A DNA stretch of 63,778 nucleotides, filler included, from Reclinomonas americana ATCC 50394 (lineage: Eukaryota), in the NCBI GenBank assembly GCA_048213135.1. It is 4 parts of 4 records of this genome, joined end to end, with 100 filler letters (N's around TTAATTAATTAA, not from the genome) between each part and the next. Parts side by side here need not be neighbours in the genome. Positions count along the whole stretch, not along the records: positions 1 to 28,482 come from PS015142.1; 3 more parts are not named here. One strand, 5' to 3'. A program made the translations under genes and the position numbers. Each line of letters begins with the position of its first letter. The first letter of the stretch is position 1. The notes beneath the pieces are model-generated. The model was given only the letters and a program-made list of their open reading frames with translations, ran no database searches and was not told where the DNA came from. This document shows, one piece after another, positions 8,501 to 62,108 of the stretch.

Positions 8501-11500
8501 GACCGGAGGGCGTTCAACACGCGATCGCGTTCGTCCTCCATTTGCTTCTTGGTGGCATGATAGGCCTGTCCCTGTGCCGACTGGAACGCCGGTCCCTTGC
8601 CCTGCGATTCCCATCTCGTCAGCCACAACAACAACAACACCAGACAAATATGAGACACGCCACGAGGCTCTCCCAACCTGCGCAGTTGGATGTGCCAACA
8701 GAGTGCGCCGTTTCCGCACGCCTGACGCCTGGCTGTGTGCCTGCACGCGTGATCCTGCACGCGATCCAGTGGCCGACGATCCAGCCAATCGCGATGGCGG
8801 CTCCGGCCGCAGCACCGATGGTGGCGGCTGCGCCGGAATATCACCACGCAAGACCGACGACGTTGGCGTCTCACCTCTGGCAGTCAGCAGTNNNNNNNNN
8901 NNNNNNNNNNNNNNNNNNNNNNNNNNNNNNNNNNNNNNNNNNNNNNNNNNNNNNNNNNNNNNNNNNNNNNNNNNNNNNNNNNNNNNNNNNNNNNNNNNNN
9001 NNNNNNNNNNNNNNNNNNNNNNNNNNNNNNNNNNNNNNNNNNNNNNNNNNNNNNNNNNNNNNNNNNNNNNNNNNNNNNNNNNNNNNNNNNNNNNNNNNNN
9101 NNNNNNNNNNNNNNNNNNNNNNNNNNNNNNNNNNNNNNNNNNNNNNNNNNNNNNNNNNNNNNNNNNNNNNNNNNNNNNNNNNNNNNNNNNNNNNNNNNNN
9201 NNNNNNNNNNNNNNNNNNNNNNNNNNNNNNNNNNNNNNNNNNNNNNNNNNNNNNNNNNNNNNNNNNNNNNNNNNNNNNNNNNNNNNNNNNNNNNNNNNNN
9301 NNNNNNNNNNNNNNNNNNNNNNNNNNNNNNNNNNNNNNNNNNNNNNNNNNNNNNNNNNNNNNNNNNNNNNNNNNNNNNNNNNNNNNNNNNNNNNNNNNNN
9401 NNNNNNNNNNNNNNNNNNNNNNNNNNNCCCGTTGCGGAGACAGCGTCGGCCTGCGAGGGTGGTGACGAATTGAGACAAGACAATGAGAGCACACAAGTCA
9501 CATGCATGCCCACGCACCGCTGGGAACGACAGGCGATCAACATAGGCAGAGAACGCTGCACTGGCCGACGAGTGGTTTCGCACTGTCAGCGTCAGCGTCT
9601 TGCGCTCAAACAGGCCCACCATGCCGAAATCGAGACACGGTACTGGCGCCGTTGGCGGCCGCTCAGTCGGCGGTGCCGTCGTCGTGGCTCTTTCAAAGCA
9701 TTGATCCACCAGCCAAGAGGCAAAACTGCGCAGAGAAGGCGAAGGTGTGAATAACTAAATAACTGCAGACTGCAACCACGAGTGGCGACGGCGCGTGGGG
9801 GGTACGCACGGCTGAATGGGCTTGTTGACTCGATGAACATCGCCGTCGAACGCGTCGGCCGAGTCGGCAGTGGCAGTTCCCGCCGTGGCCTCGCTGGTGC
9901 CTTCGACAAACCCACTGGCAAGTGCGCCGACTTCGGCAGCGATTTGCGTGGTGACCTCCTGTGTATGCACAGTGAGTTCGTGATGATGGGATTTCAGCAA
10001 GGCGAGCTGAGCGACTCGCCTCCTCGTTGGCCACATCCAGCGACAGCACCATGCCCTCGGTGCGACCAGACACCGCCAGTGCAATCGGCGTCTCCATACC
10101 CTGAACCCAGCACGGTAGCAGGATGCGGAACGGACCCACGACGGTTGGCGTCACTTGCATCGTCAGCAGGGCGTCGGAGCACGGCGCAATGCGCCCAGTT
10201 GCCGCCGAAATGCCCACCATGCAGGCTGTGAACACACAAGGACGACCACGTGAGATCACAGTGTACTGCGCAAGCTCGCGCATGCACACACACACAAACC
10301 ATCAGCTTGCACACTGATCCACTCGAAATCGGCGGGCACAAGACTCAGATTCTGTAGTGTGATCTCAAACAGCTGCGGAACGTTGATGGTACACGGCGGC
10401 AGCTCGATCACCGGTGGTCTCATGACGACCTGAGCGCACCACAGTAAATACCGATGGCCACAGATACAAAAAGAGAGAGAGAGTCACGGAGGAGCACCTT
10501 TGGGGCGTCCACCACCGCTCGAACACTGATGAAGCAACTCTCGCCGTCTTCGACAGCGCATTCCACCAGACCCTCCAGACGGAACGGATACTCGGGATTG
10601 AACACGACCGACACAATCTGCGTGACACGAGGCGTCAGCTGCCTTTGCAAAATTAAGCGCACAGCAACATGTCGGCATGCACACCTCCTTGGATTTCTTG
10701 GCCAGCACACCCTCGGGAGGCAGGAAGAGGAACTTGGGTTGCTCCGACATTTCGTGCGTCAAGTCGTCACTGCACCACAGTAACGAGGATCGGAACGAGT
10801 AAGCATCTCACACAGCACACTGCATGAGAGACGAAACAGCGCCGCACCTGTCTCGCAACCGACTTGCCGTGACACGCTCGGCCAGCATCCAGTGCACCGG
10901 CGTCGGCGAGTCGTTGACCACGGTGAGTGTGGCGGCAACCTCGGTGCCGACCTCGACCACACCAAAGTCGATGGCGGCCTCCTCGAGGAAGACCTGCGGA
11001 CCGGCAACCTGGCCCGAGATGTACAGCTTCACTGGCCGCGCCGCGTCGAACTTGCATGGGAGGACGAGAGCCAGCGTTTGTGGAGAGTTGATCAGCAAGC
11101 TGACCTTGACCTGCAGGATGGTGGTAGGCGTTTGAGCCAAGGAAGAAATGAAGATGAATTCGAAGCATGAAAAGGAACGGACCTGCATGGCCTGGCCGGC
11201 TGCAATCTTGCCATTAAAAGGCTGCAACTGGATGGCGTACGGCCCGAAATCCGAGTCGTCGGTGGTGATGCCCTCGTAGTCACCGTGTGAGTCGCCCTCC
11301 AGTGATCGTGTTCTCTTGCGTTCCTCTTCGGCGTAGTTGTACTCGCGATTGTTGCGAATCCCATTGTGCACACCCTCCGGCAGCTCCCACTTGAACGACA
11401 CGGCAACATCGCCACGGTTGTGCAACGTAATGTACCGGTCGTAGCGCTCACCCAGCAGCATCTTGCCTTGGAAGGCAATGATGGGAGGCACCAGTTCGAC

Positions 11501-14500
11501 GCTGACCTGGCACGCATCGCCAAACATATCGAAGCGCTGCACGGACATGTCATAGCAGCCGCGCTCCCGATCACTGTCCACCAGCAAACGCCGCAGTGCA
11601 TCCGTGGCAAAGAAGCGATTCGGGTCCAGAGTGGCACCGACCAGCGACGCATCCAACTCGGCCTCGTCTACGCCACCGCGTGAGAATCGACGCACACAGC
11701 AAGACGACAAACAACAAAGCGAACAACCAACCGTTTTGTGTGCGCTCCGAGAGCTCTTTGGTGAGCGATCCACCAGGCAGCCCCTCCACCCACAGACGAG
11801 CCACCGCAGTGTGAGTGCCAGGGTGAACGTCGCCAGGAGGCGCAAAGGCAAAGTGGAACACCGCCGTGTCTTGCGCGGCCACCTGCCGTGATGGAGGCTC
11901 CACCAGGAACACCGACGACGATTTCCCTTGCTGGTTCTGGTGAGTAGGCAGTGTTGAGTGAGACAAGAGCGCCGACATAAATTCGCACAGAGGCACACAC
12001 ACATACCAGCAATTTCCACGTCACAGTCAGGGGTACAAGGCTCGAGTTTGTCACTTCGACTGCGCACGCACAAAAAACAAACAACGGTGAACAAGTTGGT
12101 GACAACAACTCACGATACCATGTGCAAAACTCACCCGCGCGAACTTCCTTCGACGTCAGCGTGGTCTCATTAAACGCCAGCGTCGATGAGTGAATTCTGG
12201 GATCAAAGGGCTCGCCGTTGACCTTGCTCACAAACACATTCGGCAGCGTGCCAGTACCTGCAGCATCCACAAATGAGCAACGGTGGCGCATGAAGGCGAC
12301 CGCTTGCAGCGCGTCGACGCAAGGATACCGTTCAGCGTGTACCGGAACACCGTCATGTTGTCGCACACTATATACAGATTCTGCTCAGCCATGTCGGTCG
12401 ACAGTGGCGCAAACAACACTTGCACATCCACCTCTGCGACCCAAGAAATGGAGGAAAGCATTAGCTTCCGCCGACTCGCAGAATCACCACTCGCTGATGC
12501 TCCTCTCACCAGACGATGGCACGAGCATAAAGTCGGTCGGGTACACCTCAAAGTTGACACCACACTGCACACGTGTGCGCTCCGCCAGAGCCGAGCTCAA
12601 CAGGTAACCAACGCCCTCAGTTTCGTATTGCAGGAATTCTGCCAACACAATCGGTGACGATGAGACGGGGCGTCGCCAAGCATTCTATCGCGAGGCACAC
12701 AAACCGTCTTCGGAGAGCAGCCAAAAGTTGCCGTTGCCACCAATGTTCTTGCAACGGAACACATTGTCGGACTCGAATCCGATCAACGCAGGCCTGCAGA
12801 AGGTAGACGAGAACAATCAACGCCCCAGTCATCAACTCCACCCCACAATGACGACGACGACGGAACTTGCAGTTGAGCCGATTCGGCAGCGTCAGTCGCG
12901 GTGGGTGGTTACGGCCGAGAAGAGTCACTATGATACGAAGAGGCGAAGTGAGATGACAAGCACATCTGCATCTCTCCTGCTCAATAAACCACCAACCTTC
13001 CAACTCGGAAAAGTCAGTGACCACCACGGCGGCGTCGTCGACATCGGCCACACTGTCCGGTTTGAACAACACCACCACAGTGATGCTCATACCCGGTGCG
13101 ACCAGTGCATTGTTGTTCGGCAGCTTGGCCAAGTGCACGGAAAAGCGAGAAGTGGTCGGTGGCAGCACGCGCAACCGCCTTGACGTGCTCGACACATTCA
13201 TCACCGTGAACGACTGCTCCAGTTGCTCACCCACCTGCGCATCGAACACAAAACATACGACGCCGTAATCAGTCAGAATGCTCCGTGCCCCCACCCTCAC
13301 TGTACATGGCCACCACTGACCCTGTACGCCGAGAAGGTCACGGTGTTGGTGGAGAGCGCAAACGCTTGGTCTCGCCGTGTACCACTCAGTCGCGGTCGTT
13401 CGTCCTTGCTCGGCAAGTCGCGGAATCGGGGATTCACACGGAAGTTCAACTTGCTAGTCATGTGAGCCTCAAGCTGCGCGTCAGCCGGATGCTGCTGGGC
13501 CACCGCTGTGCGCAAACGCTGTCGCTTTGTCGGTGTGGAGGCACCAACGACCTGACCGTCACCACCGAGTTTGAGCGGAACCACCATCTCCGTCAGGCGC
13601 TCCTTGTGGCTCTCAAACTCCTTCTGCTGCACCTCAGCCTCGTCCACAAAGCGCACCACAGAGCCGGCACGCGACTGTCCACCACCAGTGACAACAGGTG
13701 GACGCGTGGGCGGTGGTGATCGGTCTGCGCACGCATATGAATTCAACTGAATGCTCACTCTCTCCGCTAACCAGTGCATACGCACCGAGGTTGACTTGAC
13801 TGCCACGCGAAAGGGTGACAGAGGCAAAACGAGGCATGGACTCGCGCTTGGAGGCCAGCGGCAGCGGCTGGAACGTCCTGAACACGCTACTGTCTTTGCT
13901 GGTCATGAGCGCCACCGCGTCCACCAGATGGTAGCGCGCCAGCAGCGCCTCATCCTCTTGCAGGAACTGATTCACCAAGCTCTCATCTGCACGTGCGATC
14001 ACACTGGTGAGCCATTCGTTCATCGATTCCTCGCGTGCACATGGAAATGGAGGGGCGAACCAGGTTGATCCGCGTGTTCATGGTCGATCTGCACAGCGGG
14101 CGGTGAGCGGTGAGATGCGAGTCACGCACACACTGACATGTTGTTCAAGCACAAAGACGCACTGCAGATGGCCCGGCTCCATCACCCGGATCCGAGGGGA
14201 ACTGCGAGGAGGCGTGAACCGATCGCGGCGCACCGCTGCCCTCCGCAGCTGCCGTTGTTGTCGGCGCCGACGAGGCAGCGACAACAGCCGGCTCGTCGTC
14301 CAGCTTCACACTCTTGGCGACCTCGGCACGCAGACGTCGCATGCGATGCCGACTGGCCTCCACCAAGTGATCGGCAAGTCGCATGCATTCCTCCACCGAG
14401 TCGCGCGCCCGACCCTTCACCAAACGAATCGTGGAGCCGTACTCATCTTGCGGCTCATTGTCGTCCGGCTCGTCGACTCCCAAGCCCTTGGACGGGTGTG

Positions 14501-17391: not shown

Positions 17392-20300
17392 TCACGTGCG
17401 GCGATCCCGGTGGCGACTGCTGTCCGTGGGCGGATTGATGCACGGCATGAAGGGTCGCAGGGCTAACCGCGTGCGTATTTGCCGCGCACTCAGTGGGGCG
17501 GCAAACTGCTGCGGGTCGAGCGGAATGACCTCGTCGGGCAACAGCGGAACATGAATCCCGAGTCCGGCGTCATAATACACCGTCTGATCGTGATGGTGTA
17601 AGGGGGGGAGGAAAGACATGATGATATTGTTTTTTTGTGTCCGCACCTGCCACTGGCTGTCGGGTGACAGCACGAACCAGAGCGTGGCAACAGAGGCACC
17701 TGGTCCGTCGATATTAGAGTACTCGCGCACAAGCATGCCGTGCACCGAGAACGCACGTCCCGGACGCTGCGCGCGCTGGAGTCAGCATTCATCGAGAGAA
17801 AAACAATTACCATCGCCTCGCCAAACCTCCAGATCATGTACTTGTCTCGATGAGCGCGACTCCTGCTGCTGGAGATGCAGGTACACGTCGAGGTGGTGGT
17901 CGGCGGCATGCAGTGCCGTCTCCATATCGAGACCGACACTGGCGACTGGCTCCTCACGTACGCGCACGTGCATTTCTTGTGGAGGCGGACGGCGACGGCG
18001 GTGATGCGTCGAAGCCACCACCTCCTCGTCGTCGTTGATGACAAGCTGCACGTCGCCCACATCGCGCAAGTACTCTGCGTCCGCGTCCAAGACACTGTCG
18101 GTGCTCGACGCATCATCGTCGCTGTTCGCCGTGGCCTCCTGCTGGTCGCGTTGTCGCCGGCGCTCTTCTTCCAGCTCCTTCCGACGAGTCTCGACCAGCT
18201 TCCGACGCTGCTTGCGCAACAGCTCTCGCTGACGCTTCTCTTTCGCGGCCTTCTTCTCGCGACTGCCGCAAACGCAATAAAGGGAATCAGGCTTGTGGGA
18301 GGCTGATCCCAGTTCATGCGCACGACAAACCTCGTCGCAGCTGCCGTCTTGGACTCCCGATTCCGACGCTTGTCGTCCTTCTTGTCGCTGTCACTACTAC
18401 TGCTACTATCGTCATCGTCGCCGTCGGTGCTGGTGGACTTCTTGCGACAGCAACACATGGAAAACAGCTTCCGAAAGATGCCAAACTTGCTATACAGCGT
18501 GTCAGCACTCCACAGCGGAACAACATGCAACTGGTGTGGGCACGCAACAAGCCAAGATACAGAAGGGCGAGCAATCCCAGGTAGAAGGCCAGTGAGGCCG
18601 CCAACTTGCCCCAGCAGCCGCTAAACAACGAGCACGTAATGTTGAAGCTGCGGAGGTCGCATCGCAGGGGTGAGGCACGCCCGCACACGTGGATGGTCAG
18701 CAGAACGAATCGCACGCAACAATCCACATGAACAGCTGTCGGAACCACCGGACCCGAGAATGGCAGGCGTCCCCGAGTCACTGGGTGCCGACCCACCCTG
18801 CATACCCTGGTTGATCATCATGGCGGTGGTGTTGAAGCTGACCACCACAGTGTCGATGAGTGACTGCCCGCTGTCGTACAGCAGCACTGCACGTGCGCCA
18901 CGTAATGAGTAACAGATGGAAGTCATTGCTGAGCACATCAACGGCACCTGAGCAAATGTGATCCGCCTGAACCGACGTCTCGGCGAAAATGTCAAACACA
19001 AACAGGTGCGTATCACCCGGTGCAATCGACGCAGTCTGTGCCTGCACCTCTTTGATGTCGCTCGAACACTGTGCCACAGTGACATAAAAGTCGGCAGTCA
19101 CGTTGCCGATGCTGGCCACCAGGACCTTCATCTTGCCGTTGTTGGAGTTGCCCTCGAACGTGCCGACCGTGGCACTTCTGATGACACCGCCACTCCTGCA
19201 CCTCACACTCGTCAGTCAACGCAGTCATCGGCCCCGTGCGCGCCATAGTGGAGGCCGCACCTGTTCACCACATATTGCACATTGTCGGCCTTCAGCGTGA
19301 TCGTAATCACACTGGCCTGCAAGCTCCGAATCTGGTACGCCAGGTACGTGTCGTTGCGACCGCTCTCGCGCAGGCTCACAAAGTTGCCGAAGCCGTCCAG
19401 CAGGTAGCGTGGCGTTAGGCCCTGACTGACGCGCTGGAGATCAGACTGCGCACATTCGTTATTTTTGTTGAGATGAGTGTAACACAGCAGTACTTGGGAG
19501 CATCTGGGACCAGCACCTGGTACAAGTCCTGCAGCTGATTGTTGAGGCAGGAGCCGGCTGGTTTATCGCACGCATTAGCATCGTACTTGAATGCCTGCGA
19601 GAGCATGGTGGTGAGCATCACGAGCGAACCACCATTGCTGGCATAAAACAGCGAGCAAACACAACGTAAAAACCGACACCGATCTTGTCGCACTCGCGAC
19701 CGTCGAATGTGATCAGTTCACGGTCGACCAGCATCCACGCGGCAGGTCCCTGGTGCGCAGCGATTTATGAATGGAAGAGTGAAACACTGGATTGCAGATT
19801 GGCAACACTCCAGGCAAACCAGCTTCACAACGGGATCGTCGACCGGGATCCAAGGCACCATCATGATCTTGTTGGCGAGGATCGGCGGCGAGGTGTACGG
19901 TGAGAAGTCGCCCACCAGTCGCACTTGCACACTGCGATATCGATGCACAGAATCAGCACGTGTAGACGGCCAGTCTGTGCCATGTGTATGCGTGTGATCG
20001 ACTCACGCTCCATCCGACGACAGCGATCCCAACTGCGTGGGACTGACTCGCAACAGCTCCGTGCTGGTCTCGTTGTCGGAGGTGTATCGCACAATGCTCA
20101 CCGTGATGATGAAGAACACCTCCCACTCGCCGACCTCGTAGCCATTGTACCACAGATCGCGAAAGCGCATGCAGTGTGCACTCTGACCCGAGTCGGAGAA
20201 GAGGCCGCAGTTCAGACTGCCACGCGCTGGACCACTGCCAGAGCCCACCAGTCCGCCGAGCACGTCGCCAATGGAACACGAGCAGCAAAAGCCTTGCGAG

Positions 20301-20909
20301 TACTGCACGCGGTTGTTGTTGGCGTCGGTGTACCAGCCGCACGACGGATTGTCGTCGTGGTCGCCGGCCACACACTGGCTCAGCAGCAGCGACTGCAACA
20401 CGATGCGCTCCTTCGGCTTGGTGTTGAAGGTCTGCGCGCCCCAACAGCGTCATTCAGCGACCACCACTTCCACACTCCTCTACGCGTGGTGACAACAACG
20501 TACAAACCTGTCGATACGTGACCGGGTAACGCACATACGCGTTGGTCTTCTTCACCGAGATCTCCCACGGTTTCTGCAAGACGCGCGTCTTGCCGGTCTC
20601 ATCCGCCACACGATCGACCGTCGCCAGCAGTGCCTCGGTGTTGTTCTGCATACGTGCACGTCACGATAAGCACAGCGCGAGTGAAGCTTCCGGCGCCAAC
20701 CCCACCTGCCCAATGTCGACCGACATGGTCAACACAAACTTCTCCGTGCACGAGATGCCGCTGGCCGTGTCGCGCCCGCTTCCATCACGCACGCACTTGC
20801 TGACCTGTGACGAGGCCAGCAGCCCGCCCTCCACGCTGCTCACCGTCACCACCAGCATCACCGTCATCGCCACGAGCATGCTCGCCTGCACCACCACAAC
20901 AATGCGCAT
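17392..20909 (-). CDS. HAP2: HAP2/GCS1 gamete fusogen (class II fusexin) with long cytoplasmic tail
   Basis: Signal peptide; SQGFCCSC, ARGSLNC, SAHCMRFRDLWYNGYEVG, WMLVDRELITFDGRECDKIGVGFYAFKY...CDKPAGSCLNNQL; Ig-like domain III; TM helix followed by CCCRKK. All introns GT-AG with the frame maintained. Confidence 0.95.
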
Positions 20910-24503: not shown

Positions 24504-26472
24504 TCACTCGCGCGGCAGCTTGGTCAGCTCCTCGCAGTAGGCGGCCAGCAGCTTGATGCCCTGGATGTAGTTCTCGCGGTCAAACTTTTCGTTCTGGCCA
24601 TGAGCTGCGCGACGACAGAGGAGGGGAACGGATTTGAGCCTTGTTCTCTGACAGCGACACGCAAGTGCACAAGGGAGGACGCACCGCCGTCGTCGCTGCG
24701 GCCGAGCGGAAGCATCAGCACCGTCTTGCCGGTGGCCTCTGTGAAGGTGAGCGTGATTGGGATCGAGCCGCCCTCGCGAGTGAAATCGGGCGTCACGCCC
24801 CACACCAACTCGGTGGCCTTGCGACCAGCCACTGTACGCACACTGTTAGGAGGGATGGATGAATCACGCCGCGAGGGGAAGGCATGCACGCAACCGTCTG
24901 TGCACGAGGAGCGAGGTGAGAAGCGAAAAACAAGATATCAATGCATATATAGCATGCATTCGGACGAAACAGTTCGGGTGGTCGGGGTTGGCCAGCCACG
25001 GCTTGCCCGGGTGCTCGCACCACAGACGCATCTCGTTCGGTGAGCCGAGTCCCGCAAACACGCGCTCAACGTGGCGGCGAGTGACCTCAATGGCCTGATC
25101 CGGCGTCATGTCCGGCACGAGGCTGTATGCGCGACGGACACTTCAGCTCGACAAGAAATGCAATGCAAGACCACTCCGCCCACCACCACCTACCGGATGG
25201 AGAACTTGCCGACAACGCGTCCCGGAATCACCGTCTTGCCGCCGACACCGTAAAAGGCGCCCTCCACGCCGTGGATGGAGAGCGAGGGGTAGCGCCAGCG
25301 TTGCATCAGCGTGCGGATCTTGTCCTCCCTGCCCACTCTCCCCAATCAGCAACACAACAGCGACAAATGACAAGAGAAGGCGACAGAACTTGTGAATGAC
25401 ATGCGCGCCACCGGCGTCGCTCGAGAACTCGGTGAGCGAAAAGTCAATAGGCTCGTACAGAGCGCGCTCCTCGTCGGTGACGGGGCGCACCAGGTCAGAG
25501 ATGCCCTCGATCTGGATGTTGCCACGCGGGTCCACCAGCGAGCTGAAAATGTGCACGAGATCGGTCATCGGCTCGTGCACGGTGCCGCCAAAGAGACCAC
25601 TGTGCAGATCCTTGCGCGGACCCACAATCTCCACAAAGAAGTAAGTCAGCCCACGCAGGCCTGTGCATGCAGGAGAGTCGTGTGGTGAGCCACCGTGCGC
25701 CTGGAGGAAAGGCCACACAACCTCCACCTACTCCACCCCACTCACCGTACGTCAGGCACGGCTTGCTCTTGCTCAGCCAGTAGTTGTCGCTGATGCACAC
25801 GAAGTCGGTGCCGGCCATGAACTCGCGACCCCGCGGTCCGAGCACAAACTCCTCCAGACCAAGGCTGCCGCTCTCCTCCATGCCCTCGGAGATGAGCTGC
25901 GGGAGAGTTGAGCAACAGAGGGAGAAGGGAGGACGATCAGGAAAGAAGCATAACCTTGATGTTGACGGGCAGTTCCCGTCCCAGTGCCTGATACGCCTCC
26001 ACAACCCACAGCTGATTGGTATGGTCCGCGGTGAGAGTCGCAGAAACAACAACAACATACACGTCAACACAAACGAACCCACGCGAGGCCAGGGCCCTGC
26101 ATCGCACACCAAAGCACATGAGAAAAACACGTGCAACATACATTTTCCGGTGCAAGCAAACAGCACCTTGTCATCAGTGGTGCCACGGCCCCACAGCTTG
26201 CCGTCCAACTCAGTCATGGTGAACCTGTGCACAACCAGCACAGCACATGAGAGACACGCGACACGACACGCACAGAGGCCGCTGCATGCACTCACGGAGG
26301 CTGCATTGTGAGAGTGAGTGATCGTGAGACAACAAGGAAGGAAAATGTCGACTGATGCAACGCACCGTGTTCCAGCCATCGTCCAAGCGCGCCGGCTGCA
26401 CATCATAGTGGAAGTAGATGAGCAGTGTCGGCTTGGAGGCGTCACTGCCAAACTGCGCCAGAAGGATCTGCA

Positions 26473-26511
<39 letters not shown>

Positions 26512-26920
26512 GACAAGAGAGAGTGATAACAGACAACAGAAGGAACGCAACAGGCGGCAGCTGCATGCTGGTGCCCTCCTGTGTGGCAGTAGCAGCAGCA
26601 GCAACAGTGTGAGTGAGCGTGTGAGTGAGAATGTAAGAGAGCATTCATGCGAGTTTTTTTCACCTGTGCGCCGAGCTCACACAGCTCTGCCGTGCCTCCC
26701 AGGCGACGCACCCACTCAACAAGCCACTCGGCCTGACGCACGCAGTCGCCTGTGCATGCACAGTGAGCGAGAAGTGCAAGAAAGAGAGACTGTGTGTAAG
26801 AGAGAGAAAGTAACTGCGATGCGCGGGGTCCGAGCTCACACTGGGAATGGCCACAGCCTCACCCAAGCGCGCCACGTACTCGTCGGCATGTGCATCCACA
26901 AACGCAAAGAACTCCTCCAT
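24504..26920 (-). CDS. CNDP2: Cytosolic non-specific dipeptidase (M20A; CNDP2/Dug1 family)
   Basis: [88 protein letters not shown]. Includes 3-, 5-, 18- and 27-nt exons. Confidence 0.96.
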
Positions 26921-34195: not shown

Positions 34196-37100
34196 TAGAG
34201 TAGACGAAGACNNNNNNNNNNNNNNNNNNNNNNNNNNNNNNNNNNNNNNNNNNNNNNNNNNNNNNNNNNNNNNNNNNNNNNNNNNNNNNNNNNNNNNNNN
34301 NNNNNNNNNNNNNNNNNNNNNNNNNNNNNNNNNNNNNNNNNNNNNNNNNNNNNNNNNNNNNNNNNNNNNNNNNNNNNNNNNNNNNNNNNNNNNNNNNNNN
34401 NNNNNNNNNNNNNNNNNNNNNNNNNNNNNNNNNNNNNNNNNNNNNNNNNNNNNNNNNNNNNNNNNNNNNNNNNNNNNNNNGAGAGAGAGAGAGAGAGAGA
34501 TGCATGATGCAAGCAGGCAGTCACCTGGTATCGAATCGGCTCGGGCCACGTCTGATTGTAGGCCACAACCGCTGGTGGAGCATTCAACGGTACCAGTATG
34601 TTGCATTGTGTGAATGTGGTGTTGTTGATGATTTGGAAGGGAGCACTGAAGCGCTGGACGCCGTCCACAGAGAAGATGACTTGATACTGTGTGAGGTGTG
34701 TGAATAACAACACGCATACAATCTCAGTGATGCGGGGGAGTGAGAGAAAAACAGACCACGCCAGTCAAAGCTGCTGCGATTTGCACATTAACAGGAAGCT
34801 CTCCCGTCATACTGCAACACTAGCACAGTCAGCAATTATCCGACACACACACAAAAAGCCAGTGAGCGCGAATGATACCTAGATCGACTTTCCCACGGTC
34901 GCTGTGCTCGCAACACAGCCGACGAGTTGGGGAACGGGGAGGAGTCAACGCGCTGCAACGCTAAAAACGCGCTTTTGCCACCAACACCTGCGAGTAGTTG
35001 AATGATTCGTCGGCGACTAGCGTACGCATACACACACAGCGAGAAGGAGAGAGAGAGAGAGAGAGAGAGAGAGCGATACTGACCCTGGGCATTGCTGGTC
35101 ACTCGGAGAATGGAGAGAAAAGTCGCATCGCTCATGGTCGTCGTGTTGAACGCGACCACACTCGGTGCGTCCACCAGCACTTGCACATCGGTAATCGATG
35201 TGGTGACGTTGATCAGTTGCGACGGCAGCGTGCCCTTGCCCTCGCAAAAGAACGACAGCCGGAATGTACCAGCATCGCCGTAGGCGGTGAAAGCGAGACC
35301 AGAGAACGTGGCCCTGCAGCGCGGTGAGGACGACTTGCGATGTGGACGCCACGACAACACGCCCGCACACATACCGTCCATTCTGGTCGGTGACTGCGGT
35401 GAAGTTCCGCAAGCCCTTGTCACTGCTGTAGTATGGCACGGGTAACAACTGAAAGTAGTCGATGCTGTGCGACAGAGAAGAAGCAGTTGAGTTAAACAAA
35501 AAAGAAACGAGAAGGAGGAGGACAGCTTGTGTACCCCTCTGCGAGTGGAAACGAGATGCGAGTGAGACACGGTTCATGAAGGCGCGCGAGAGGATGTGCA
35601 CGCAACGAGATGACGATATCAGAGCAAACACTTTCTTGCCGGGCATGGGATTCTGCTGCGCATCCTGCACCAGAACAATGGGCTGAACAGCCAGTGGCAC
35701 ACCCTCCACCGCAGACGGCGACGGCTGTTGGAACAGAATGACCGAGCCCACTGCAGCAGGACACAGCGATGAATGCACTGGGGCCATACACATACGCACA
35801 GCAGAGATGCTCAGGTCCACCAGCGGTAGTCATGGCCATCGGCTCCGAGTTGTTGATCAGCCAGTCGGAATCCGCGTTCTCCGACACTGCCAAATCAGTC
35901 ACATAAGAGAGAAATGGAAAAGGAAGCGAGCCACGGGTGCGGCCGTACCGATGCGCAAGTAGTTGATGGGACTCGAGCTGGCGGCGAGTGTGACATTGTT
36001 GAATGTGACCATGCCGTGCGCGTCCGATGGTCCACCGCGCGAGTTGATAATGTCAGCTGTGCTGCACGTGAGTCTCCCTTCTCCTTTACATGTCACGGCG
36101 ATGGATTACGCAACTGACTACAACTCCAGGGATGCCCATTTGCTGCGACGGCAGCAATGTTCAGACGACTGCGTCTAAGAAAATCTAATTTTTTTGAAGC
36201 ACGCTACCTGTGGTTTGGCAGAGGCCACGACAAAGGCGTAAGCGCCGGCCACCGGGTTGCCACTGGCATCGAGCAACTGCACCACCGGCTGGTTGGTGAA
36301 CGGCGTGCCGAAAGGAATGAAATTGGCTCCGGGACCGCCGCTCGTCAGCACGATTTGTTGCACTGCGGTGGGAGTTTGTGAGCGGTGACTTGCGAGATGA
36401 CAACATCAGCGCTCCTCACCTGTGGGCGTCACCAGCACTGGACTTGGCGGTAGCTCTACCGAGCCGCCGCCAAAGTTGATGCCATACGTCGTGCCAATCG
36501 CAGCATTGATGTACCAGCCGCACCCGCTGGACTCGAAGCGCAGGTCCACAAATCCCGCGTCTCCATTCTGCACGCAACGCAATCGCAATCAATATGACAG
36601 CGCAGGTAGGGCGGTGTGTGAGAAGTCATGAATGTGCGCTCACCAAACCCGTGACTGCGGTGGTGTTGCCGACCAGGCGAGGGATCGCACACTCAATGTA
36701 ATTGTAGGCCTCGAATCTGCATCGTGGGTGCGCGTTGGTGCCATGATCTCTCACCCGACGAGACACACGCACGCGCACACGGGGAAGGGTACGCAACGAG
36801 TACCGCTCGAGTGCGTCATTCTGACCATACACCTGCGCATACGCCGTCACTGTCGTGCCGGCGACGCGATTCGTGTCGGTGCCGACGGCTAGAACCTGTG
36901 CGCCGCTCAGGTGAGCGAGAGAAGGAAAGGGAGGAGAGAGAATGACGCGCGCAGTGGGAGTGCTTGACGCACCGTCGGCTGCTGCTGCAGGTTCACATTG
37001 TAGTACGCCGTCCGCGAGGGAGTCTGCATCGTGTACACCACCGCCACCTTGGCGGCGGCCAGCGGTTGCCGATTGGGATCCACGTACACCGAGTGCAGGG

Positions 37101-50934: not shown

Positions 50935-53900
50935 TTACTCGTTGCAGTTGGGGTCGCGCATGTGCAGTGGCACATCTTCGACTTGTGGTTGTTGCTGTTG
51001 TTGTTGTTGCTGCTGCTGCTGCTGCTCAGGAATCGCCGGCTCGCCTGTGCGACAAAGTTTGCACGACGAATAACGGGTGGTAGATAACATCAGAAGGCGT
51101 ACATACCGGCAGGTCGCTGCGCTCCTGCGCGGAGTGCCATCATGCGCGCTTGCAGCGATAGCCCACCACCCAGGCCTCCAGGAACGGCAACAGCTTCTGG
51201 ACGCACAACAAACGGATTCGCTGGCGGCTCTGCAGGTCACCCCCTCACGTGAGACTGAGCGCATCGCGACGTCATTCTAGGCCACACATGCAAGCACACA
51301 CCGCGAACAAGAGGCTCGGCTGCAGCTGCAGCGGCAGCGGCAGCGGCGGCGGAAGCCACAGCCGCAGGCGATGGAAGTGAGAGAACAGCTGGCTGGCTCC
51401 GCTCTGCACACCGAGTGCAAAGATCAGACAGAACGACAGCGTAGTCGCGTGCCGTATTCGCACACACCTGCCACAGCGGCCGACCGGGCGCCAAAGGGAT
51501 TCGCGGCGACTGGTGATTGAACAGCGGCGAATGGTACCGGTGCGGCTAGTCGCGATTGTTTCAGAAATAGGTTGGTGAACAGCACCAGCAAAGAGTGACA
51601 TATCGCACCTGGAGAGCCAGCCGCCGCCTGTCGAGGAGCACCAAACGGATTGCCTGCTGGCGCAGCCGCTGGAACCGCAGCTGCAAAAAACAAATATCGA
51701 TCAGCACGACGGCTCTCGGGCAGACAGTGCACACGAACTACGCACCTGGTGATGCATTTTGTCGCGGAGCACCAAACGGATTGCCTACCGGCGCAGCTGC
51801 TGGAACCGCAGCTGCAAAAACAAATACCGTTTAGCAGGGTGGCTGTCGGGTAAACAGTGCACACGAACCACGCACCTGGTGATGCATTTTGTCGCGGTGC
51901 AAACGGATTGCCGGCGAGTACTGGCGATGCGACACCTGCGACACCTGCGTAGTCAACAAAAATACCGACAGCGAGTCAAAAGGCCCAACAAGACCGGCAA
52001 CGTACCTGGCGATGCAGGCTGCCGAGCAGCACCGAATGGATTTACTCTTAGCGCGGGCGAAGCGGGATTGCCTATTTTGACGTAGTGAGTACATACATGC
52101 ACCGTCGTCGTCCACACACCAGTCGCAAGACGCACCAGCGGGAGCAGGCGGCTGCGCATTTTCCGGCAACGGCGGCGCTGAGGGCAGTACACACTTGTGA
52201 GGGCGGCGAAAGAACAACCGCACACGCGAAACAGTGCAACACCATTGTATGCCAAACGGAATGCTGCCAGTGAGTTGTCCACGTCAGCAACTGCGTTCTC
52301 TGCTCGCATGGTCAGTCAGTGACACATTCACCCACACACACACACATCAGGTGCGCCACGCACCGCTCATCGGAGACTCGGCTGTCAAACGCACGACACA
52401 CAAACAAGTGAGACATTCCACCAACAGCTCAAGCGCGGGCAGGGGAAATCCATCTCACCGTTGGCGGCAGGGGCGGGCGGCGACGACACAGCTGCGCGTC
52501 AGGATGGATGAGTTGACGCAGCACGCGTTGACAATGACAGCACATGCACGCACGGTTGCGAGCTGCAAACGGATTCGCAGCGGCGAGCCGAAGGGGTACC
52601 GCCGGCAATGCCACTGGAACAAGTTGCGGCGGTACTGCACACAAGAGCGCACGACGCGTCACCACATCAGCAACAATCACACACCACCACATCACCGCGC
52701 GCCACTTTTCACCTGGTGCAGCAGCTGCCGCTGCGGCGGGCGGCGCTGACTCAGGTGCGCCCTGCGACTGAAACACTGTCGATTGCTTCTCTGCATCGAA
52801 TGGCGTCGGGGAGAACGAGCTGCGCACTTGCAGCACTTCTGTCCCACTCTCCCGTGAGCGGGGGCACCGAAGAAGACACATTCCGGCGGCCCCTCACCTT
52901 GCCCGCGTTCGTCACCGGGCATGTCGCCCTGGAGATCAACGAGGCTGACCTGCGGACTGGCAGCCGAGGCCGCTCTCCCACCAAACGGATTGACCGCGAG
53001 TGCTGCAGCTGCGGCAGCTGTCGTGGATGTGGTGTGAGACAAGAACATTACTTTGGCGCGCCCACACAAAACTCATACTGACCAGCGCGACGAGGGGCAA
53101 ACGGGTTCGCCGCAAGGACTGCATCACGTGCGGTGAGGAGAGATGAAGAGGGCGCGCGGTGACATGAAGGCATGAGGAGCAACACATACCACTGCTGGCT
53201 TCGGGTCGAGGTGCGACGGGTCCGAATGGATTGCGTGCCGCCGACGGCGCTGCGTGCACGACAAGATAAAGGACGTCAAGACTCAGAACGGTAGTGCCAG
53301 GCTCGAGACAAGAACACACCGACAGCTACAGGAGACCTGCCGGCGTCCGAGCCTGCTCGACAAGACACATTATCTCAATGAAAACACCACAGACTCAGGG
53401 AAGCCTCACCTCCTTGACCATCCTCTTCCGCTCGTTCACCTGCATCCACAAAGAATGAGAAGCAAGAACAAAGAGAAACAATCACAAGAGGCAACGAACC
53501 TCCGCGTGCCACTGGCTTGCCTGCAAAGCAACATTGAAGGCGTCAATGACGAGCGCGAAACAATCATCCTACCCAGACATAACGCACTCACCAAAACCGG
53601 TCGCCACTGGCGACACTGCTGCTGCTGCTGCTGCCGCCGATGCAGCAGCGCGAGGCGGCGGTGGTTGCGGCATGCGCATAATGCACACGGAGAAATCAAT
53701 GCTGACAGAGATGAAGCGCCGATTGCGCACGTCGCACAGCAACTCGGTGGCGGTGTCCCGATGAATGTCGTACGCGTACGATACTCGAATGCCGCCCGGC
53801 TGCGGCTCGTTGCCGACATGCCACACTCCAATGGACGACGCACCACCGCCACTGCAAAATACGGCGCCTGCACCCCACGTGGCCAGCATCTGCGCTTGCT

Positions 53901-59839: not shown

Positions 59840-60692
<853 letters not shown>

Positions 60693-61238: not shown

Positions 61239-62108
<870 letters not shown>

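Follow-up and report, generated by a model that had tools for sequence, protein, structure and literature searches.

The stretch of DNA analyzed here (the window; 63,778 nucleotides, filler included) joins four parts of four genome records of Reclinomonas americana ATCC 50394 (assembly GCA_048213135.1). Its minus strand carries, at 24504..26920, a gene of 15 exons and 14 introns, the latter 58-85 nt in length, with an open reading frame of 472 aa. The product was matched to the structures of human and mouse CNDP2 and of yeast Dug1 (best PDB entries 4RUH, 2ZOF and 4G1P), is 54-60% identical to its top 20 homologue matches, and scores 709 bits on the family profile, over profile positions 4-472. 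The similarity extends over the full length, through both the catalytic and the dimerisation domains, and supports assignment of the predicted gene to the CNDP2/Dug1 dipeptidases of family M20. Residues H93, D95, D126, D127, E160, E161, D190 and H441 occupy columns conserved in 56-58 of 58 homologues, and we take them to be the metal-binding and catalytic residues. The predicted gene is likely a working dipeptidase gene. In a quick tree, inferred from a set without amoebozoan, apusozoan or other named protist references, the protein grouped with choanoflagellate and animal sequences (98% SH-aLRT). A third match in the genome, on a multi-megabase contig (L003, G000:C2), is an intronless M20 peptidase ORF of 465 aa, which is probably bacterial.

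The gene contains short exons of 5, 18 and 27 nt and, between exons 12 and 14, a predicted internal exon of only three nucleotides, ACG (exon 13; 24895..24897, minus strand). Exon 12 (24971..25122, minus strand) ends in AACT at 24971, and its translation corresponds to human CNDP2 residues 344-393. Exon 14 (24685..24831, minus strand) corresponds to residues 396-443. Exon 13 has phase 1-1, completing the codon of Tyr390 and starting that of Val391. It is preceded by intron 12 (24898..24970, minus strand; 73 nt, GTTTCG...GCACAG), whose donor GTTTCGT follows an exonic T, and is followed by intron 13 (24832..24894, minus strand; 63 nt, GTTGCG...GTACAG), whose donor GTTGCGT follows an exonic G. 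Both are GT-AG introns with a CAG acceptor. An internal exon of at most 30 nt between two complete spliceosomal introns is by definition a microexon, and exon 13, as predicted, is one. Its inclusion gives the peptide HPN-Y-V-AGRKA within the 472-aa frame. Skipping gives HPN-L-AGRKA across a single intron of 139 nt, with the frame kept; both outcomes reproduce those of an earlier note on this DNA. As skipping leaves the frame intact, only the function of the protein would force inclusion.

Conservation of the residues across the microexon

The alignment to human CNDP2 ends at residue 393 for exon 12 and resumes at residue 396 for exon 14 (397 and 400 in the mouse protein), hence two residues are expected between the two exons. 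Inclusion supplies two (Y-V) and skipping one (L). We retained 58 of 120 homologue matches, those within ranks 1-70 that were 380 aa or longer, and found the aromatic column occupied by tyrosine in 33 and phenylalanine in 24; the sole gap belongs to an isoform that terminates or departs from the alignment at this point. On the profile of these 58 homologues the inclusion protein scored 709.2 bits and the skipping protein 698.6 bits. The best 80 of at least 360 metagenome matches to CNDP2 gave the same picture: 60 loci were contiguous in register (F in 33, Y in 27), a further 18, read by eye, kept both the Y/F residue and the spacing, and 2 of the 80 were unreadable. The shorter spacing that skipping would produce occurred in none of the 58 homologues and in none of the 78 readable loci among these best 80. 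The ortholog alignment that the earlier note had proposed thus favors inclusion, by the Y/F column and the two-residue spacing alike. The family pattern HP.Y.AG, which that note gave, holds for the spacing and the aromatic residue and is too narrow as written, since W and P, Y or F, and A or G occur. In the AlphaFold model of a homologue with identical local sequence (P0008; mean pLDDT 91), both residues belong to the first turn of a helix spanning 389-402, by hand-counted positions. Loss of one residue at this helix would be expected to harm the enzyme.

For the span from exon 12 to exon 14 we enumerated 430 solutions with one or two GT/GC-AG introns. The solution with the 3-nt exon ranked first of the 133 that were open. 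A second copy of the gene, separately assembled (L004, G000:C2410), is 95.3% identical and has the same gene structure and an identical 3-nt exon; from its sequence it looks like the other haplotype. The 18 substitutions between the copies in 1419 exonic bases result in one amino-acid change, whereas 998 intronic bases contain 46 substitutions and 54 gap bases. Judged by this single amino-acid change among 18 exonic haplotype differences, the CNDP2/Dug1 gene is under constraint. A run of 47 nt around exon 13 is identical in the two haplotypes, weak support given that we estimate its chance occurrence at about 1 in 10.

These data bear on the possibility that the true splice solution is a different one, for instance a GC-donor exon of 6 nt or a single GC-AG intron from 24953 to 24818, or that the locus is mis-assembled or dead. 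The sheer number of open solutions lends this some room, and the next best of them reaches 702.5 bits. The near rivals, however, need GC donors, or yield insertions or residues that are not conserved; retention of intron 12 (73 nt) shifts the frame, and that of intron 13 (63 nt) adds 21 residues. An assembly error or a dead gene is at odds with the same structure in the separately assembled haplotype, where 17 of the 18 exonic changes are silent. We regard this group of explanations as very unlikely.

Splice signals and gene prediction

A simple gene model was self-trained on approximately 397 kb of genomic sequence (the window together with portions of contigs C133, C134 and C135, with at least 13.6 kb of overlap), from which the CNDP2/Dug1 gene was left out. 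The model converged on 976 introns, 935 of them distinct, with a median length of 68 nt; 860 of the 935 fall at 50-95 nt and six at 125-155 nt. Applied to the gene left out of its training, it called the 3-nt exon. In the same gene it missed exons 5-7 and shifted two acceptors, and its counts are accordingly approximate. Among predicted sites, the donor and acceptor of intron 12 stand at the 85th and 72nd percentiles and those of intron 13 at the 86th and 84th, and the log-odds for inclusion from signals alone amounted to 9.6 nats. A CTCAC motif in intron 12 (24916..24920, minus strand) and a CTAAC motif in intron 13 (24845..24849, minus strand) stand at the usual branch distance and may serve as branch points; of 836 predicted introns, 71% have a CT[CGA]A[CT] motif in the branch zone, against 18% after shuffling. 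The sequence ahead of the AG of intron 12 is 80% pyrimidines, so that the pyrimidine tract with a CTCAC motif that the earlier note had described is present.

How readily such an arrangement would arise by chance was gauged by dinucleotide shuffling of the 100-nt interior, in 5000 replicates. An AG-NNN-GT that leaves two introns of 50-95 nt appeared in 90, of which 29 also restored Y/F. An exon of 1-30 nt with a summed site score at least equal to that observed appeared in 23 shuffles, and a 3-nt exon of this strength in none. When 300 shuffles were passed through the gene model, a single intron was predicted in 288, an inner exon of 12-36 nt in five and some other outcome in seven; no 3-nt exon was called. 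RNA structure was considered as an aid to inclusion and rejected, as the fold was no better than that of shuffles (z of 0.84 in the window and -0.07 in the other haplotype). A hairpin of 8 bp is predicted within intron 12 (approximately 24940-24960, minus strand) in both haplotypes.

Were the exon always skipped, the AG-ACG-GT would be there by chance, within one 139-nt intron, and the protein would have a private deletion of one residue. The frame is open for this reading, and introns of 125-155 nt do occur (6 of the 935 predicted). Yet it falls 10.6 bits below inclusion on the family profile, it gives up the Y/F column that is present in every readable homologue, and it leaves to chance a 3-nt exon with sites whose strength was matched in 0 of 5000 shuffles. 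Constant skipping is therefore extremely unlikely. The minus strand reads as the earlier note had claimed, and homology, splice signals and intron lengths agree on a 3-nt microexon in CNDP2. From the genomic sequence, we consider it very probable that the ACG exon (24897-24895) is included in the mRNA.

A different matter is whether a real exon could be alternatively spliced, with regulated skipping that would replace Y-V by L and modulate or inactivate the enzyme while the frame is kept. The symmetric phase 1-1 would permit this, for skipping keeps the frame, and alternative use is common among Drosophila microexons, most of which are alternative (283 of 411 internal ones, in the accessible text of PMC8042270). 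Four metagenome loci (L063, L081, L082 and L091) contain the exon for this helix twice in tandem, upstream of the match and resembling mutually exclusive exons, which suggests that alternative splicing of the region may occur in other organisms. Against such regulation in the present gene, the shorter spacing is seen in none of the homologues read, the inner splice sites are of above-average strength, and skipping would require an intron of 139 nt, a length that is seldom predicted here. On balance, regulated skipping is unlikely, and the evidence argues for an exon that is included as a rule.

The same gene contains a second very small exon, of 5 nt (exon 5; 26296..26300, minus strand). It ranked first of 588 open solutions, its skipping leads to a stop at codon 112, and among one-intron alternatives even the best depends on a GC donor and falls short by 10 bits. 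This exon is critical for the frame, and it gives separate support for the splicing of exons of a few bases in the CNDP2/Dug1 gene. In the genome sample, predicted exons of 1-5 nt numbered seven, against 28.6 under random placement (among 813), and a crude word-based test over approximately 397 kb found no excess of 3-nt spacings (two at k=3). Very small exons are therefore either disfavored or under-called; isolated microexons are tolerated in this genome but not abundant, or else they are under-called. Elsewhere in the window, the gene model predicts, ab initio only, an exon of 4 nt (35535-35538, minus strand) and one of 6 nt (53320-53325, minus strand), each between introns of normal length.

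The GTT.CG donors and two types of U1

Both introns that flank the microexon start with a donor of the GTT.CG type, in keeping with the earlier note, which had placed them in a shifted class. The class is not special to the microexon. It accounts for 226 of the 935 predicted introns, about a quarter, and we rejected a particular tie to tiny exons, as such donors follow exons of 1-12 nt in 4 of 19 cases and exons of more than 120 nt in 106 of 423, the same share. The base before a GTT.CG donor is A, C or T in 205 introns and G in 21, compared to G in 586 of 709 for other donors. The microexon's own donor follows a G, being one of those 21, so a last base other than G is strongly preferred without being a strict requirement.

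The genome search for U1 returned three matches, of two types. Two of them (L120:1501-1654 and L121:1501-1654, on G000:C429 and C479) have a variant 5' arm, AUACGUAACUUG, complementary to GTTRCGT; the flanks of these contigs are 93-97% identical, and the contigs look allelic. The third (L122:1501-1673, minus strand, on G000:C343) has the canonical 5' arm. An additional canonical-arm 12-mer is found on C2364. The variant U1 aligned to RF00003 over positions 1-166 with an E value of 3.5e-14 and 64.0 bits, below the cut-off of 69.5, with protein-binding loops and an Sm-like site visible; the canonical-arm U1 is likewise below the Rfam cut-off (63.7 vs 69.5 bits).

Among the 860 predicted introns of normal length, all 212 GTT.CG donors pair better with the variant arm by at least 1 kcal/mol, with a mean duplex energy of -9.1 kcal/mol compared to -1.1 kcal/mol for the canonical arm. 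The 648 other donors favor the canonical arm by at least 1 kcal/mol in 363 cases and the variant arm in 70. For the donor of intron 12 the duplex energies are -3.6 (variant) and +0.5 kcal/mol (canonical), and for that of intron 13 they are -10.4 and -3.1 kcal/mol. In a register shifted by +1, the canonical U1 could form five Watson-Crick pairs with each of the microexon donors, and the variant could form six. Because a second U1 gene matches the GTT.CG donors directly, ordinary U1 in a shifted register is probably not what reads them. Of the other snRNAs, U6 gave three matches, of which the two that were aligned contain the standard ACAGAGA box, and the U5 search of the genome gave no match, the controls likewise being without signal. 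We lean slightly toward a broader picture, in which two U1 snRNPs, one canonical and one reprogrammed for about a quarter of the introns, operate in parallel in a spliceosome that has no practical lower limit of exon size. Should this be true, an essential 3-nt exon of a universal enzyme, placed between two variant-U1 introns, would be the cleanest reporter of both properties.

Proposed splicing mechanism and origin

Our preferred reading, to which we assign a probability of roughly 0.84, is that the ACG exon is constitutive, that the short introns on its two sides are removed sequentially by intron definition, and that their donors are likely read by the variant U1. Constitutive inclusion is suggested by the invariant Y/F column together with the spacing. 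Each flanking intron would be recognized as a unit across its own length; as introns of about 70 nt can be recognized individually, the exon between them would not need to carry signals itself. Two assembled spliceosomes would not fit on three bases, so that introns 12 and 13 would leave one after the other. The variant U1, whose 5' arm matches GTTRCGT, would have to be expressed and would read the starts of both introns.

The exon may have arisen by insertion of two introns at a distance of three bases, in a gene that is very rich in introns. When we placed 14 introns at random in this coding sequence, an exon of at most 3 nt resulted in 32% of trials, and a special function is thus unnecessary to explain the exon. 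Origin by duplication of one intron was rejected, as introns 12 and 13 resemble each other less than most pairs do (of 204 same-class introns, 79% and 75% reach an equal or higher score). Introns at the positions of introns 12 and 13 were found in 0 of the 78 readable metagenome loci (of the best 80 of at least 360), among which the best identity is 77% and many look like transcripts. By this comparison with loci that are distant and in many cases transcript-like, the two introns are probably lineage-specific. An unrelated CNDP2 locus (L043, approximately 1447-1485) is interrupted by an intron located 2 nt upstream of where intron 12 lies, and several other CNDP2 loci break near residues 398-400.

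Comparison with known systems

Neural microexons of animals are tissue-regulated switches under the control of SRRM3/4. Exon 13 resembles them in a length that is a multiple of three and in frame-neutral skipping, and it differs, as far as the accessible accounts go, in that its residue is ancestral and invariant and its flanking introns are of about 70 nt. A search of the genome for the SRRM3/4-type regulator (PF15230) gave no match, but the control genomes were also without signal.

Closer parallels are found in plants and fungi, here taken from the accessible parts of the reports. The plant set of 1-15 nt microexons includes RNA-confirmed 1-nt exons in APC11 and VPS55 (PMC8831610). It shares with the present case a tiny coding exon in a conserved protein, between ordinary introns, that is usually included and easily missed by annotation. 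In contrast, the plant microexons are RNA-confirmed and conserved across many plants, whereas exon 13 is known from genomic sequence, with no matching intron position in the 78 readable loci. The intron-rich fungus Cryptococcus neoformans has exons down to 1 bp (PMC3990503), and there too the genome is intron-dense, the introns are short and the tiny exons stand among ordinary ones. Its intron density is 3.35 per kb of coding sequence (PMC3990503), compared to a predicted 5.8 here, and here about a quarter of the donors are of the GTT.CG type. PMC4739763, in its accessible part, describes only a method for the detection of 3-15 nt exons. The 3-nt exon is ordinary as a microexon, such exons being already known in plants and fungi.

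With regard to the donors, U1 arms that have co-evolved with atypical donors are described for Entamoeba and Mastigamoeba, and Physarum is reported to have both a standard and a modified U1 (10.1101/2022.06.08.495308). In the available text of that report, as here, the 5' arm is altered to fit an atypical donor, and Physarum shares the presence of both U1s. The changes in those arms are substitutions in the normal register, whereas here the core of the donor is one base deeper in the intron and the canonical U1 coexists. At mammalian shifted-register 5' splice sites the ordinary U1 slips register (PMC9311317, citing Roca and Krainer 2009). These sites, as the accessible text presents them, also resemble the usual consensus displaced by one base toward the intron interior; here, however, the class is common (the 226 predicted introns above) and is better matched by a dedicated U1 gene. 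Our literature search, with most subscription journals and supplements outside it, found no link of CNDP2 to a microexon, nothing on this U1 arm and no 3-nt microexon in a protist.

The main relevance of the locus is to annotation. A predictor that drops the 3-nt exon removes an invariant aromatic residue and raises no frameshift warning. Since the family is conserved from fungi to humans and fixes the answer, the locus is a homology-anchored test case for 3-nt splicing. Both flanking introns fit the variant U1, and the locus therefore also probes which U1 reads GTT.CG donors.

Some features of the assembly and of the rest of the window are of note. The assembly appears to contain both haplotypes, 95% identical, and multi-megabase contigs of bacterial appearance. 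Two near-identical partial PCNA genes (59840-60680 and 61240-62100, minus strand) flank an N gap in the window, either as tandem copies or as both haplotypes scaffolded serially. Pfam matches in the window include a HAP2/GCS1 gamete-fusion domain (18781-20449, minus strand) and a DLEC1-like protein (10811-13453, minus strand), presumably pointing to a sexual, flagellated organism.
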